A program made the position numbers and the translations under genes. A stretch of DNA of 24,059 nucleotides from a virus (lineage: Duplodnaviria > Caudoviricetes), in IMG/VR virus record IMGVR_UViG_3300025022_000018, positions 1 through 24,059 of that record; one strand, 5' to 3'. The notes beneath the pieces are model-generated. The model was given only the letters and a program-made list of their open reading frames with translations. It ran no database searches and was not told where the DNA came from. Every line of letters begins with the position of its first letter. The stretch's first letter is position 1. Positions 44-20,244 of the stretch are shown here, piece after piece.

Positions 44-115
44 ATCCAACAAGCCAAGGAAACCGCTTCGTCTTTAGCGGAGCGGAGGAATTGGCTTCCC
101 CCTTTTGTAATTATA

Positions 116-124
116 TGATATAAT
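116..124 (+). promoter_or_regulatory. Extended -10 (TG-A-TATAAT) for a probably leaderless tnpB mRNA
   Basis: TGATATAAT ends 8 nt before the ATG at 133; no Shine-Dalgarno sequence. Confidence 0.55.
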
Positions 125-132
125 AATTCTAT

Positions 133-1245
133 ATGCAACTGTCTATTAAGATTAAACTTGTTCCTAACCAAGAACAAAAAGACATTCTTTTGAAAACCAT
201 TGAAGCTTATAACGAAGCTTGTAATTTTGTTTCCCAAATAGCTTTTGAAAACAAAACTGCTTCTGTGGTAAAAATCCACCGCATTTGCTACTACGAAATC
301 CGCAAAAGATTTAATCTTTCCTCTCAAATGGCTGTTCGTGTAGTTGGCAAAGTTGCCGACGCTTACAAGATTGCCAGAAGTAAAAAACTTAATCTTAAAC
401 AACCCCATCAATTTAACAAGTGGGGAGCTGTTATTTACGACCAACGTATTTTCTCTTGGAAAGGACTTGAAAAAGTATCTATTCTAACGCTTCAGGGCAG
501 ACAAATTATCCCCATTGTCTTGGGAGAGTACCAGAAAACCAAACTTATTTATCCCCGTAGAGGACAGGTTGATTTGCTGTATAAAGATGAAAACTTTTAC
601 TTGATACCTGTTGTGAATGTCCCTGAACCGCCTGAAAAGATTAACAAAGGTTTTCTTGATGTAGATTTGGGCGTGAAAAATTTGGGCGTTGATAGTATGG
701 GTGAAGTTTACTCTGGAAAGGAGGTGGATAAAAAAAGAGTAAAGATTGATAAACTGAAATCTGCTTTGCAAAGGAAAAATACCAAGTCGGCGAAAAGACA
801 TTTGAAAAAACTGTTTGGCAAAGAAAGTAGATTTAGAACTTGGGTAAACCACAACATTAGCAAGAAGATTGTTAAAAAGGCTAAAAGACACTCTCTCGGA
901 ATTGTCATTGAAGATTTGACACATATCCGAGAGAGACAACGGCTTCGGAAAAGTCAACGCAGACAACATTCTTCTTGGGCATTTGACCAGTTGAGAAGGT
1001 TTTTGGAATATAAAAGTAAACTTGCGGGAATTATTCTGAAAGTTGTTGACCCGCATTATACTTCTCAACGATGTTCTGAATGTGGTTTTGTAAGTAAACA
1101 TAATCGCAAAAATCAATCTAATTTTGTTTGCAAATCGTGCGGCTTTTCTGCTAATGCCGACCACAACGGAGCTATAAATTTAGCTCAACTTGCTGTTGTA
1201 AACCAGCAAATCGTAGGTTCGACTTACAAGCCACTAGGTCTTTAG
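133..1245 (+). CDS. tnpB: RNA-guided endonuclease TnpB
   Basis: N-terminal IKLVPNQEQ, RuvC-I VDLG, RuvC-II IVIEDL, YTSQRCSECG...CKSCG zinc finger, RuvC-III NADHNGAINL. The D/E/D triad is intact. Confidence 0.97.
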   Translation: MQLSIKIKLVPNQEQKDILLKTIEAYNEACNFVSQIAFENKTASVVKIHRICYYEIRKRFNLSSQMAVRVVGKVADAYKIARSKKLNLKQPHQFNKWGAVIYDQRIFSWKGLEKVSILTLQGRQIIPIVLGEYQKTKLIYPRRGQVDLLYKDENFYLIPVVNVPEPPEKINKGFLDVDLGVKNLGVDSMGEVYSGKEVDKKRVKIDKLKSALQRKNTKSAKRHLKKLFGKESRFRTWVNHNISKKIVKKAKRHSLGIVIEDLTHIRERQRLRKSQRRQHSSWAFDQLRRFLEYKSKLAGIILKVVDPHYTSQRCSECGFVSKHNRKNQSNFVCKSCGFSANADHNGAINLAQLAVVNQQIVGSTYKPLGL

Positions 1246-1281
1246 CCTAGTGGTAGTTTACTTTCTTGGCGTCATCCTGAC
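1192..1281 (+). ncRNA. TnpB omegaRNA (reRNA) core plus about 20-nt flanking guide
   Basis: Stem GCTG/CAGC whose loop GTAAAC (1198-1203) is complementary to terminal GTTTAC (1256-1261), forming a pseudoknot. Further stems at 1213-1227 and 1231-1253. Guide TTTCTTGGCGTCATCCTGAC starts at 1262. The 5' limit is uncertain. Confidence 0.7.
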
Positions 1282-12101: not shown

Positions 12102-12874
12102 TTTATTTCCTCCAAATCTTTAACTAATTTCATAAAATACTTCTGGATCTTTTTGATTAATAGTTTTCGAGCAGCATCGGCAGCAGCATCAGCAGCATGA
12201 GCAGCATAAGCAGTATGAACAGCAGCATCGGCAGCAGCATAAACAATATAAGCAGCAGCATAAGCAGCAGCACGAGCAGCAGCATAAGCAGCAGCATCGA
12301 CAGCATGAGCAGCATAAGCAGCATGAGCAGCAGCATCGGCAGTATAAGCAGCAGCATAAGCAGCATAAGCAGCAGCATCGGCAGCATGAGCAGCATAAGC
12401 AGCAGCATAAGCAGCAGCATAAGCAGCAGCATCGGTAGCAGCATGAGCAGCAGCATAAGCAGCATCTCTATTCTTCTTCGTATCCTTTAACAAAACCATT
12501 TTTACCGCTTCGATTGCCTCTCTCGGTCTCATGTCACTTGGATACTTTTTCTCAAAAATAGGTAAAACTAATTCGGCAGAATAAATAGCTAATTTTAGAC
12601 TATCCTTCTTTGTCCACTTCCAAGCCTTAATTACTCTCTGTTCTTCCCAGCATTCTTTGTTGTCTTCTTCCAAGTGTTTTCCTTTACATTCTACTTCGGT
12701 TAATATTTCACCTTGCACATACAAAAAAGCATCGTAAGCATCTTTACAAGCATGAAGTCCCCAATTACACATTTCTAATTCACCTTCCATTTTTACCCAC
12801 TTACCGATAGACCATTTCTGGCTTCCGTGTTCCGACTTCATTCCTTTGTGTAAAAATTTGTATCTGGTTGTCAT
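12098..12874 (-). CDS. Phage protein: YK...GLHAC N-terminal domain (DUF7666-like), Imm5-like RPREAIEA segment, Ala-rich repeat
   Basis: Motifs in the translation; coupled overlaps at both ends. Confidence 0.75.
   Translation of the reverse strand: MTTRYKFLHKGMKSEHGSQKWSIGKWVKMEGELEMCNWGLHACKDAYDAFLYVQGEILTEVECKGKHLEEDNKECWEEQRVIKAWKWTKKDSLKLAIYSAELVLPIFEKKYPSDMRPREAIEAVKMVLLKDTKKNRDAAYAAAHAATDAAAYAAAYAAAYAAHAADAAAYAAYAAAYTADAAAHAAYAAHAVDAAAYAAARAAAYAAAYIVYAAADAAVHTAYAAHAADAAADAARKLLIKKIQKYFMKLVKDLEEIK
12170..12465. repeat. Degenerate (GCA)n coding repeat with 9/12-bp units
   Basis: Units GCAGCATAA, GCAGCATGA and GCAGCATCG encode AAY, AAH and AD on the minus strand. Confidence 0.95.
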
Positions 12875-17209: not shown

Positions 17210-17407
17210 ATGATACCAAATTTTGATCCGGAAACATATTACGACAAAAAAGAAGTACCCGAGTTTGAGAACAAGCCTCGTAAGTTTAATTGGCTGTACT
17301 TTGAATACTGGGCAACCAAGAAAACGAACGAGTTGGGGCAACCCAAGGATTGGGTAGAGTTTACGTTGGACGTGATACAGAAGAAGGTAGAAAATGAAAA
17401 ATACTGA
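17210..17407 (+). CDS. Hypothetical protein
   Basis: RBS AAGGAG, preceded by the hairpin ACTGGGGG/CCCCCAGT (17170-17198). Confidence 0.65.
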   Translation: MIPNFDPETYYDKKEVPEFENKPRKFNWLYFEYWATKKTNELGQPKDWVEFTLDVIQKKVENEKY

Positions 17408-17528
17408 AAAAAGATTTTATGCTTTGTGGACGAGAGAAGAAATGATTGAAGAATTATGTCGCTTTAATATCCTTTTAAAAAATATGGATTTAACGATTGA
17501 GAAAGTAATAAAGAAAATAAAAAAATGA
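17394..17528 (+). CDS. 44-aa hypothetical protein (not in the ORF track)
   Basis: MKNTEKRFYALWTREEM...; ATGA-coupled to the exonuclease. Confidence 0.55.
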   Translation: MKNTEKRFYALWTREEMIEELCRFNILLKNMDLTIEKVIKKIKK

Positions 17529-18283
17529 AAATACGCAACAAACTATATAACGGAGAAACAGAAGTAATGTTCGAGTCTTTCCGGCATCAATATTTTGATA
17601 AAAACGGAGAGATTCCTTCGGTTACGACTATTCTTTCCATAATTGGGAAACCTGCCCTTATTTCGTGGGCGGCTAATACTGCGATTGACTACGTTAGTCA
17701 ACAGATCGAGCCGGGGAAGTCGTACGATGAGTTAGAATTGCAGGCTGTCTGGGAAGGTGGTAAACGAGCGCATTATCAGAAAAAGACAGACGCGGGGACA
17801 GTGGGTATGTTTTTACATAAATTTATAGAGCAATATATCAAGGGTGAAAATCCAGCCGCGCCGGTGAACGAAGGGTTAAGAGATTCTGTTGGTCTATTTT
17901 TGGCTTGGGTAGAAAAACATCAAGTTAAATTTCTTCTGTCAGAACAGATGGTCATGTCCCGCAAATACCATTTTGTCGGGACGCTGGATTTTGTCTGTAC
18001 CATAGACGGCAAAATGTATCTGGGAGATTTGAAAACTTCGAGCGGGATATATCCGGAGATGTTTTTACAGACTGCCGCCTATCGCCTTGCCCGAACGGAA
18101 GAGTATCCGGAAGAAGATTATGCCGGACAACTAATTATTCGTATTGGGAAAGAGGGAGACTTTGAAGTGGCTATCGTCCGCGATGACGTTGCTTATAGAT
18201 CAATGCTTGTTGGCTTTATCGCCGCTCTTAAACTTTACGAAACCATGAAGAGCCTCAAAAAATATACTCCGAAAAAAGAGTGA
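17525..18283 (+). CDS. PD-(D/E)XK exonuclease (Cas4/RecB-like phage nuclease)
   Basis: PSVTTIL, G..LH, E, GTLD, DLKT, Q.AAY. Confidence 0.9.
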   Translation: MKIRNKLYNGETEVMFESFRHQYFDKNGEIPSVTTILSIIGKPALISWAANTAIDYVSQQIEPGKSYDELELQAVWEGGKRAHYQKKTDAGTVGMFLHKFIEQYIKGENPAAPVNEGLRDSVGLFLAWVEKHQVKFLLSEQMVMSRKYHFVGTLDFVCTIDGKMYLGDLKTSSGIYPEMFLQTAAYRLARTEEYPEEDYAGQLIIRIGKEGDFEVAIVRDDVAYRSMLVGFIAALKLYETMKSLKKYTPKKE

Positions 18284-18362
18284 ACTACCATTATGCTAAA
18301 GACAAAATGGCTTCTCGTTTCATAGACTTGACTAATGTCAACGCCTCACCGAGTTTTTGTTT
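18280..18362 (-). ncRNA. 3' part of a split TnpB-type omegaRNA scaffold
   Basis: CTCGGTGAGGC-GTTGACATTAGTCAA-GTCTATGAAACGAGAAG, then the right-end hairpin and GTTCAC. Confidence 0.65.
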
Positions 18363-18367
18363 CCGTT

Positions 18368-19006
18368 TTATATTATTTCCCAACCTTTATGAATATTTCT
18401 TTCACCTCTGCATAATAAGGCAATACATTTACTATCAAGATTAAATTCTTTTCTCAATTCATATTTAGTGCAAATTTTAGTCCCAAATTCTTTATGTTTA
18501 AATTGATAAATATCAGTATCGTATTGTGGATTATTTTCTCCATTCATTTTACCAATCATTGATTTTCTTATTTTATTTTTTGTTTTTTCTGAATGTGTTT
18601 GTCCAAATCTTGGTGATAGTTTACCAGTATTTCCATAATTAGGATGATTTTTTCCTGATATTTTTTCGGAAAATTCAGGTCTCTTTTTACCAAACAAAGG
18701 ATGGTTTTCACCAGAACCTACCCCATTTCCACCAATAGACCTATTATAACCAAGGTTAGGGTCTATTGAATTATATTTTGCTATTAATTCAATTTCTTGT
18801 TTATTCAACTCTTGCCAATTATTACATTCAGCTATTTGTTCAAAGACAAAGTTTTTAAACCCATATTTTTGTATTGCTAAATGAAATGTCATAGCAGACG
18901 TTTTTGAACGCCTTTTATGTTCAGACATCCTCTGTTTTAAAGATGTTGTTGTTTTACCAATGTAAATCTTACCATTAATCTTATTTGTCGCTTTGTATAT
19001 TATCAT
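18368..19006 (-). CDS. GIY-YIG homing-type endonuclease with NUMOD3-like repeats
   Basis: IIYKATN.INGKIYIG, R..EH, E, GYN...GG; NHP.FGK and HSEKTK.KI repeats; terminal H.GW. Start taken as MIIYK (19006). Visibly lower GC than its flanks. Confidence 0.93.
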   Translation of the reverse strand: MIIYKATNKINGKIYIGKTTTSLKQRMSEHKRRSKTSAMTFHLAIQKYGFKNFVFEQIAECNNWQELNKQEIELIAKYNSIDPNLGYNRSIGGNGVGSGENHPLFGKKRPEFSEKISGKNHPNYGNTGKLSPRFGQTHSEKTKNKIRKSMIGKMNGENNPQYDTDIYQFKHKEFGTKICTKYELRKEFNLDSKCIALLCRGERNIHKGWEII

Positions 19007-19011
19007 ATCCC

Positions 19012-19045
19012 TGTTTAATGTCCGATTGCGTCCCAAAACCAGACA
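19012..19045 (-). ncRNA. 5' stem-loop of the split omegaRNA scaffold
   Basis: TGTCTGGTT-TTGGGACGC-AATCGGACA-TTAAACA. The loop GGAC can pair with the terminal GTTC. A TG-T-TATAAC -10 lies at 19059-19051. Confidence 0.6.
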
Positions 19046-19123
19046 ATTTAGTTATAACATACAGGGCTAATTCATCTCAACTGCTAAAGACAGTTGAGTT
19101 TTCTTAGCCAACCTTTATAAAAA

Positions 19124-19156
19124 GAGCGCACTCTTCAAAAATCAAAGAATGCGCTC
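19124..19156. terminator. Hairpin between convergent operons
   Basis: GAGCGCA...TGCGCTC with an inner CTCTT/AAGAA pairing; T-tract on the minus strand. Confidence 0.6.
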
Positions 19157-19162
19157 ATATTA

Positions 19163-19951
19163 CTAATACCACTTAATTTCTTCCGGCTGGAATCTGACAA
19201 TAGAATCGCGATTGATCCTAGCAGTAACCAACCAGCAAGAACATGATGGCATAAGCCCCGCCGCTTTCAACCAAAGGGTTTGCTTCTCAAAGCACCCAAC
19301 CTGTAGAGCAAAGACATTTCGGTAGTCCATGTAATATGAGACGTGGAAATGTCCGCTTGCGAGGATACTTGGTTTGCTTCCGCCTTCCATAGAGGCAATC
19401 CGACGTTGTAGTTTGTATGAAAGGGCGTAGCTGCCTCCGCCAAGTGGATGAACAAGCATTAAGGTTATGCCTTGGGCAATTTCGACGGTTGCTTCAATCT
19501 GATCGAGATACACCAAATCCTGTCGCTTAGCTGCGATGTAAAGACCGATGTCTGCTCCGTTTTGCTTCAGGTAACTAAGGCAATGGTTTCCAGTGATGAA
19601 GTAAGTGGTAATGCCTGGAATCAGGGGATACTTCTCACAAAAGTAATCGCCTTGATTGACCATGCCCCACACCTTCAGCTCGTTTTCTTGCCCAGAATAC
19701 ACTTTTGAGCCTGCAACCAAGTCTCCACAATGATACACGACGCTGATTCCTTCTCTGGCAAAGATCTTGTAAGCCTCTACCACCTCTTCGACCCGCTCCT
19801 TCGTGCTTCCCATGTGGGTATCACTTACCAATCCGAATCTCAACTCATTGCCTTTAAAAAGCGACTTGTGATCAAAGACTTGGCTTGTTGAATACCCCGT
19901 TGACTTGGGTTGCTTGGAGATGTGCAGTTCTCCGTTCGGTAAGTAAATCAT
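19163..19951 (-). CDS. Calcineurin-like metallophosphoesterase
   Basis: SDTH, HCGD, GNH, HP and GHFH motifs. Confidence 0.92.
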   Translation of the reverse strand: MIYLPNGELHISKQPKSTGYSTSQVFDHKSLFKGNELRFGLVSDTHMGSTKERVEEVVEAYKIFAREGISVVYHCGDLVAGSKVYSGQENELKVWGMVNQGDYFCEKYPLIPGITTYFITGNHCLSYLKQNGADIGLYIAAKRQDLVYLDQIEATVEIAQGITLMLVHPLGGGSYALSYKLQRRIASMEGGSKPSILASGHFHVSYYMDYRNVFALQVGCFEKQTLWLKAAGLMPSCSCWLVTARINRDSIVRFQPEEIKWY

Positions 19952-20244
19952 TCTACATTCTCCCTTGACCTGAATCCTAACTCGCCCTTGTTGTATGATT
20001 CATAGCAAAAGCTGTCGTCCTCCAAGAAGTAGCGAACTCCCATTCCCTCGACCTCCGCAATCCAAGCGCCCCGTTCGATCTTGTTACACTCGTCAATCTT
20101 GACTTGGAGTTTACGGCACTTGATTTGAAGGGCAAGAATTTGGTTGGAGTAGTCGCCAATCTGCTCGTTGGAAGTGTTCTTTTGTATCTCAAGGTGCAGT
20201 ATCCAGCTACCCCGTGTCATGTATGTTTTTACCTTGTCACTCAT
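19948..20244 (-). CDS. Hypothetical protein
   Basis: ATGA overlaps at both ends; RBS AGGAG. Confidence 0.7.
   Translation of the reverse strand: MSDKVKTYMTRGSWILHLEIQKNTSNEQIGDYSNQILALQIKCRKLQVKIDECNKIERGAWIAEVEGMGVRYFLEDDSFCYESYNKGELGFRSRENVE

Follow-up and report, generated by a model that had tools for sequence, protein, structure and literature searches.

Homing endonuclease genes avoid harm to the host gene by residing in introns, in inteins or at positions between genes, and the free-standing GIY-YIG genes of phages, including those for the T4 Seg proteins and I-TevI-type enzymes, show intronless homing. For ISDra2, it is outlined that the reRNA of TnpB takes its scaffold from the 3′ end of tnpB plus the right end (RE) of the element and its guide from the DNA flanking the RE, the transposon-adjacent motif being the target of TnpA at the left end (LE), TTGAT (Karvelis et al. 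2021, PMC8612924). The elements called PATEs are described as many-copy elements that have LE and RE hairpins, are without tnpA and tnpB, and carry an omegaRNA needing TnpB in trans (Meers et al. 2023, PMC10055086), and IStrons as single elements that combine a group I intron with TnpB and omegaRNA (bioRxiv 10.1101/2023.11.20.567912). Here we describe a groundwater phage contig of 24,059 bp (IMG/VR record IMGVR_UViG_3300025022_000018; estimated completeness about 46%), the whole of which was analysed and is hereafter called the window. Its gene products include a SU10-type capsid protein, a terminase, a primase-helicase and an amidase. Between two convergent genes (Table 1), the region 18260..19121 contains a 654-bp insert with a gene for a GIY-YIG homing endonuclease. 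As judged by homology and predicted fold, the sequences on the two sides of this gene are consecutive parts of one TnpB omegaRNA, and the insert is within its single-stranded, A-rich linker. In the texts covered by a full-text literature search, no omegaRNA containing a GIY-YIG gene is described.

With the TnpB of a related locus (L004; related loci carry L numbers) as query, 80 loci were collected. Scaffolds were taken from behind tnpB genes 68-88% identical to that of L004, and in these loci the sequences matching the 5′ and 3′ flanks of the window insert are adjacent to each other at the tnpB end. Alignment A1 and the covariance model R1 are composed of 22 distinct uninterrupted scaffolds only. 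They omit a locus at which the contig ends (L083), three whose ends were missed by the search pattern (L092, L110 and L115), exact duplicates (L090, L094, L101, L108 and L113), loci with partial tnpB (L103, L105 and L112), and L117-L161, whose tnpB genes are 50-61% identical and are followed by a different 5′ scaffold. The family fold consists of stem A, the A-rich linker, stem B around stem C, a variable RE hairpin and a terminal sequence. The terminus is GGTAGTTCAC in 17 of the 22 relatives and a close variant in the other five; the tnpB open reading frame (ORF) reads through the scaffold and has its stop in the TAG of GGTAGTTCAC. With the pseudoknot included, 97.2% of the cells are paired and 11 pairs are changed on both sides, compared with a paired share of at most 44% in slid controls, and 0/500 shuffles reach the paired share, the both-side changes or the covariation score of the family. 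Further pair types were no different from shuffles. The pseudoknot columns (15-18 x 115-118) pair in all 22 members, and one of the pairs varies (U-G in 10, C-G in 9, U-A in 3) with no mismatch.

The window fits this family in two pieces. Run with filters off, R1 matches 18386-18280 (66.4 bits, E = 3.6e-13) and 19047-19012 (32.1 bits, E = 1.6e-5), and the next match anywhere in the window has an E value of 0.39. When rejoined, the two halves cover profile positions 1-120 of a hidden Markov model of the 22 scaffolds with 78.1 bits (E = 8.3e-25; members score 65-123 bits), compared with 36.5 and 23.1 bits for the unjoined halves, and 0/20 shuffles were reported. At minimum energy, the rejoined sequence folds into the three family stems (A, B and C) plus the RE hairpin. 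Read against the family, stems B and C keep 13 of their 14 pairs and stem A loses a single one; by eye, three of the kept pairs in stems B and C use types unseen in the 22 relatives. The window letters of both pseudoknot strands also fit the family. These results bear out an earlier note on this DNA, made from the letters alone, which had claimed that the ORF interrupts a TnpB-type omegaRNA, had proposed a GGAC/GTTC pseudoknot and had suggested scoring the rejoined sequence with covariance models. Its wording that the omegaRNA is otherwise intact holds for the rejoined sequence; as it stands, the omegaRNA is split. It is thus no continuous scaffold overlapping the end of a tnpB of its own: stem A is set apart by 654 bp, and there is no adjoining tnpB. 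Rfam gave no match at the gathering score across the whole window, and only chance-level matches (E up to 10) within 18150-19200.

A direct repeat, TGTTT on the plus strand, lies at 18358-18362 and 19012-19016, and the G+C content of the insert is 24-33% compared with 40-48% for the flanking genes, as the earlier note had described for a low-GC segment of 654 bp. The insert is missing from all 22 uninterrupted relatives. It is also missing from contigs of four groundwater runs, compared with positions 17300-20100, that join 18357, TGTTT and 19017. Each of the four runs has contigs in which 12-23 letters of 18335-18357 lead straight into 19012, and one run also has a contig in which 19017-19029 comes immediately after 18362; these are uninterrupted junctions with a single TGTTT. 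Word depth in run X1 was 12.4-12.5 for the phage flanks and 15.2 for the ORF contig, compared with 94 and 377 for pieces of the omegaRNA 3′ half identical to the window, and the other runs gave the same contrast. Across the four runs, depth at the element ends exceeds that of the phage about 20- to 40-fold, and further loose contig ends represent element copies at other sites, also behind TTTAT. Since the contigs are short and depths were summed over contigs, the insert-bearing share can be given only roughly, as a few percent. The empty phage site itself was found neither in the contigs of these runs nor with the exonuclease-like gene as query, which led to only one further record, with the same protein (100% identical). 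A blastn search of phage records with 17400-20000 gave 0 matches, and the repeats within the window included no second copy of the omegaRNA flanks.

The endonuclease contains PF01541 (E = 3.2e-10) and PF07460 (E = 2.8e-7), both above the Pfam cut-offs, and matches PHROG 314 'homing endonuclease' (E = 5.4e-31) and TIGR01453 (67 bits; cut-off 56). It keeps the conserved residues Y4, Y15, G17, R26, H30, E71 and N88; we take the catalytic roles of the Tyr, Tyr, Arg, His, Glu and Asn residues from I-TevI. On these matches, the predicted architecture is that of an ordinary free-standing homing endonuclease, with a NUMOD3 DNA-binding motif and no extra domain. A PDB sequence search with the endonuclease found nothing at E 0.01. 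The name of TIGR01453 refers to group I intron-encoded endonucleases; this assignment was rejected because no intron RNA was matched in Rfam and the flanks are omegaRNA.

The close relatives of this endonuclease are tied to one site. At all ten distinct loci with an endonuclease at least 48% identical (the window, L004, L162-L164, L166-L169 and L316), an omegaRNA abuts the 3′ end of the ORF; among more distant endonuclease loci an omegaRNA match at E < 0.01 was found at 0/274 (77 + 71 + 75 + 51). A genome scan with one genome per prokaryote species gave no close relative of the endonuclease, the best being 36% identical at full length and 53% over a part. In IMG/VR, the ORF closest to that of the window is in L004 (67% identical), where it lies directly behind a 411-aa TnpB gene accompanied by a divergent IS200-type TnpA gene.

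Eight of the ten loci (L004, L162-L164 and L166-L169) have a second, recoded stem A, here called A′, after the ORF. The omegaRNA is therefore whole there, with a complete scaffold of 120 nt downstream of the ORF that scores 112-128 bits. A′ is paired in 8/8 loci, with G-C, U-A and G-C at positions that are U-A, G-C or A-U, and C-G in the native stems. The eight downstream omegaRNAs are 95.5% paired with five pairs changed on both sides, and at most 1/500 shuffles reaches the observed values. The arrangement at these eight loci differs from an ORF looped out of an omegaRNA, as they have A′ and a complete downstream omegaRNA instead. In L004, L164 and L166-L169 the tnpB end keeps its native stem A, and a spacer of about 50 nt lies between this end and the ATG; stem A is reduced to a remnant in L162, and the 314 upstream bases of L163 contain no tnpB end. 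The motif TAnnTTTG, which we take to be a Bacteroidota-type promoter motif, precedes the ORF in L004, L162, L164 and L169, and the window has no exact copy of it. The window has neither the spacer nor A′, and L316 is also without A′. Lacking an A′ copy, the window omegaRNA is truly split.

In a tree of 31 related proteins of the protein collection (P0012 and P0023 were left out), 15 end in a tail that consists of stem A′ plus omegaRNA read in the TnpB frame, and two further proteins of the collection read directly into the linker. No TnpB-type tail is present in the window, L316 or P0018. At the eight loci with A′ (e.g. L167, 3090-3245), the last six codons of the ORF, KGWKMI, align with QGLKIL of tnpB just upstream of stem A, and the ORF continues past KGWKMI in the frame of the TnpB tail. 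Judging from this alignment, KGWKMI/QGLKIL may be the microhomology where the gene first joined the scaffold. At 1373-1487 of L316, a viral contig with an endonuclease 48% identical to that of the window, the ORF runs into the linker and stems B and C, there is neither tnpB nor stem A upstream, and a 7-bp stem in the last codons of the endonuclease is at the expected place of stem A.

The insert-bearing tnpB genes are not one clade. In the tnpB tree, from which L168 is excluded, the insert-bearing gene of L167 is sister to that of L099, which has no insert (support 96/100), and the gene of L004 is in another supported clade. Forcing the two insert-bearing genes together cost 144.9 log-likelihood units (approximately unbiased (AU) test, p-AU = 7.5e-25). 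The flanks follow the local insertion sequence (IS) lineage: the omegaRNA cores are 94-97% identical to those of uninterrupted neighbours, and the endonucleases only 59-69% identical between groups. The tnpB gene of L004 (224-1459) is a mosaic: its first approximately 600 nt are 83-92% identical to the clade of L083-L085 and L095, and its last approximately 500 nt, which adjoin the cassette, are 92-97% identical to L093, L096 and L111. In L168 (2460-3082), a run of A near the start of the endonuclease ORF contains a frameshift; either this copy is decaying or the assembly is in error.

On balance, we favour the explanation that this is a homing endonuclease gene parasitising omegaRNA genes, which likely arrived, and likely spreads, by cutting endonuclease-free copies, the subsequent repair copying the gene in. 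Since such elements yielded its relatives at this one position and nowhere else, the gene probably encodes a selfish nuclease spreading by invasion of the guide-RNA gene of another selfish element. The enzyme would recognise DNA spanning stem A, the linker and stem B, a site that the insert splits, and its targets would be element copies in host or phage genomes. Cleavage of an endonuclease-free guide-RNA gene would be followed by copying of the endonuclease gene during repair. In most relatives the cassette would supply a promoter-like spacer and a recoded stem A′, so that the host element would keep a working guide RNA, much as with an intron or an intein. The window cassette has neither of the two, and its omegaRNA probably does not work, except perhaps when folded around the ORF. 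Of the three readings given in the earlier note, that of a nuclease parasitising omegaRNA mini-elements is the best fit, in view of the deep element ends and the uninterrupted junctions in groundwater.

Several points weigh against homing. The AU test compared only two full-length insert-bearing tnpB genes, and the group was named after the identity ranks were known. Recombination is common among these IS copies, and L083 shows a mosaic-like patch too. The frameshifted ORF of L168 suggests that copies decay. The uninterrupted junctions rest on short contigs (55-58 nt plus loose ends) and not on long reads, and the low insert-bearing share is unlike that of a successful drive. Having neither spacer nor A′, the window cassette is no simple copy of the common cassette. 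In the endonuclease tree, the A′-bearing protein P0014 falls outside the branch of the window, with weak support, and either direction of change is compatible with this tree. Finally, a single old insertion, together with IS recombination and precise loss via the repeated linker, could give the observed pattern.

Related to this last point is a possible but unlikely explanation in which the gene is cargo. It would have been captured once between tnpB and the omegaRNA and would since ride on IS605 elements by TnpA transposition and IS recombination, the nuclease acting elsewhere or not at all. The KGWKMI/QGLKIL microhomology, between the last six codons and tnpB upstream of stem A, offers a possible route of capture, and the continuation of the ORF in the TnpB tail frame, the recombination between IS copies, the working-looking element ends with their TnpA relatives and the multicopy state of these ends are all consistent with it. 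However, insert-bearing tnpB genes nested among insert-free ones would then require repeated precise losses or transfers. The cargo explanation also leaves unexplained why ten of ten clade members are at one site, compared with 0/274 relatives, and why the window shows a clean addition of 654 bp to a sequence that also exists uninterrupted.

We regard it as quite unlikely, although compatible with homing, that the split omegaRNA works as a guide. A transcript of about 770 nt would then be both endonuclease mRNA and omegaRNA, its halves folding around the ORF, and a TnpB produced elsewhere, once loaded with this RNA, would cut the empty phage site (TTTAT plus flank), thereby retaining the element; one transcript in both roles and a guide acting in trans had both been put forward in the earlier note. 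The insert is within the unpaired linker, all three stems as well as the RE hairpin are present when the whole natural transcript is folded at minimum energy, and the pseudoknot letters GGAC and GTTC fit each other. Mini-elements that bear an omegaRNA and rely on TnpB in trans are, moreover, described for PATEs (PMC10055086). However, eight of the ten related loci restore a contiguous scaffold with A′, suggesting that the split is a handicap, and the fold of the whole transcript contains no long-range pairs. There is no cognate tnpB in the window: its own TnpB (133-1245) was rejected as the partner, since its identity to the cognate family is 26% and R1 finds nothing in it but the RE hairpin (E = 1.7). 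The two halves are identical to abundant uninterrupted copies and are thus uninformative on selection after the split. A two-in-one RNA, in which the ends of the endonuclease mRNA would fold around the ORF, with the loop of stem A in a pseudoknot with the terminal GTTC, into an omegaRNA that programs TnpB made elsewhere against the empty site, is slightly less probable again. Least credible by far is an RNA-guided or RNA-associated GIY-YIG system, also raised in the earlier note, in which the endonuclease would use the omegaRNA, perhaps via its TnpB-derived tail: the ORF does take the place of tnpB relative to the omegaRNA and is fused in frame to a TnpB tail in 15/31 protein clusters of the tree, but the scaffold is open in the TnpB frame so that any ORF in frame would read this tail, the tail is missing in the window, L316 and P0018, the enzyme has its own DNA-binding NUMOD3 motif and the free-standing architecture described above, and the upstream tnpB is whole in L004 and L167 except for the tail removed by the insert.

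The insert is part of a larger element. From its ends and its relatives, 19116-18280 (-) is an 837-bp non-autonomous IS200/IS605 mini-element without tnpA and tnpB (Table 1); the unit 18260..19059 proposed in the earlier note marks a real region, but the element is larger than that. Only about 35 nt of the 3′ end of tnpB (stem A) remain in it, and an intact 212-aa GIY-YIG ORF lies inside, so that the absence of protein-coding genes expected of a PATE-like element does not apply. Autonomous relatives encode a Y1 TnpA (L087, NF033573, 116.8 bits) and a TnpB (L004, NF038281, 440.6 bits; cut-off 425). The plan of the LE is common to the window and L087, L114, L117, L119, L121 and L123. TTTAT or TTAT is also found 5′ of the left ends in related full-length elements, and TTTAT at the other groundwater copies seen as loose contig ends. 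The terminus of the element is C 18280, and the stop codon of the exonuclease-like gene is inside the RE. The boundaries make sense because that gene would regain ...KKE-TAA if TTTAT were joined to the RE flank. The guide and TTTAT geometry proposed earlier is in line with the sequence, as GTTCAC is followed by the reverse complement of the terminal part of the exonuclease-like gene and TTTAT is located at the other end of the element. By comparison, the TG-n-TATAAC sequence that the earlier note took for a -10 is absent from the sites listed by a sigma-70 promoter scan.

Table 1 Features of the mini-element and its surroundings in the window.
Feature	Position	Strand	Details
Exonuclease-like gene	17525-18283	+	PHROG 298
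RE flank, would-be omegaRNA guide	18260..18279	-	Reverse complement of the last codons of the exonuclease-like gene
Right end (RE)	18280..18310	-	Hairpin 18310-18288, loop TCTTTAG, then TAGTTCAC; pseudoknot 3′ strand GTTC 18285-18282
3′ part of linker, stem B and enclosed stem C	18314..18357	-	Stem B 18353-18350 / 18317-18314; stem C 18346-18337 / 18332-18324; R1 match
Insert, 654 bp	18358..19011	-	5 nt, GIY-YIG ORF, 5 nt, second AAACA (18362-18358)
GIY-YIG / NUMOD3 homing endonuclease ORF, 212 aa	19006-18368	-	Stop TAA 18370-18368
5′ part of A-rich linker, TTAAACA	19012..19018	-	First AAACA 19016-19012; sequence
OmegaRNA stem-loop A	19019..19046	-	Loop GGAC 19033-19030, pseudoknot 5′ strand; R1 match, family covariation, fold
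Junction of LE and tnpB 3′ remnant, with TG-n-TATAAC (candidate promoter)	19050..19061	-	tnpB 3′-end homology begins near here
Left end (LE)	19062..19116	-	Outer stem GGCTA 19109-19105 / TAGCC 19069-19065; inner hairpin 19098-19076, loop TCTTTAG
TTTAT, target / transposon-adjacent motif	19117..19121	-	Directly 5′ of the left end; sequence
Metallophosphoesterase gene	19951-19163	-	Convergent neighbour of the element region

A 15-pair hairpin followed by a T run is located at 19124-19156, and the TTTAT target is within its T-rich tail. This hairpin is likely a two-way terminator for the metallophosphoesterase gene and, in the empty site, for the exonuclease-like gene. A second IS605-type element, without tnpA, occupies 50-1261 (+). 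Its TnpB has 370 aa (133-1245; NF040570 at 186 bits), and its LE has a hairpin at about 61-85. Its RE, at 1228-1261, consists of a hairpin plus GGTAGTTTAC and gives the stop codon to a methyltransferase-like ORF (1686-1258, -). The loops of its LE and RE hairpins are TCTTTAG, as in the mini-element, and one TnpA might therefore move both. Elsewhere in the window, about 20 overlapping repeat copies with a period of 9 or 12 nt are found at 12158-12503 within the ORF 12874-12098 (DUF7666), where they would encode a short peptide repeat.

If homing is the true explanation, one selfish nuclease parasitises another, and residence in a guide-RNA gene, with a recoded spare hairpin in most copies, would be a third way for a homing endonuclease gene to stay harmless. 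The target of the enzyme would then be a conserved multicopy sequence of IS605 elements. The natural duplication of stem A shows where the working scaffold begins on its 5′ side, at about 120 nt, and the linker between stem A and stem B is a natural site of a 654-nt insertion; both points are useful for trimming or loading TnpB guide RNAs. Should the split guide work, the omegaRNA linker would be a natural cargo-tolerant site.

In its layout, the window resembles the TnpB omegaRNA or reRNA as outlined for ISDra2, with a scaffold from the tnpB 3′ end and the RE, a guide from the flank, TTTAT at the LE and a conserved pseudoknot structure. Unlike it, the scaffold is cut by a protein gene contained in 654 bp and no tnpB is attached; the window omegaRNA also belongs to a different TnpB lineage and has no matching Rfam model. 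The mini-element is like the PATEs in its hairpin ends, its absence of tnpA and tnpB, its omegaRNA and its multicopy state. However, PATEs as described in PMC10055086 carry no protein gene, while the mini-element of the window has an intact homing endonuclease ORF within its omegaRNA. Like the IStrons, in so far as they are outlined in the cited preprint, it nests a second selfish function with an omegaRNA, and two uses of one sequence are in conflict. The window differs from them in having no intron RNA, the nested part being a protein-only endonuclease gene. The endonuclease gene itself is similar to those of the T4 Seg and I-TevI-type enzymes: it combines GIY-YIG with NUMOD3, no intron or intein surrounds it, and alleles with and without the gene coexist. 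In contrast to these genes, however, the locus that it has invaded is the guide-RNA gene of a transposon and not a phage gene, and in most copies of its clade the displaced RNA hairpin is made good by a recoded one carried along with the gene.

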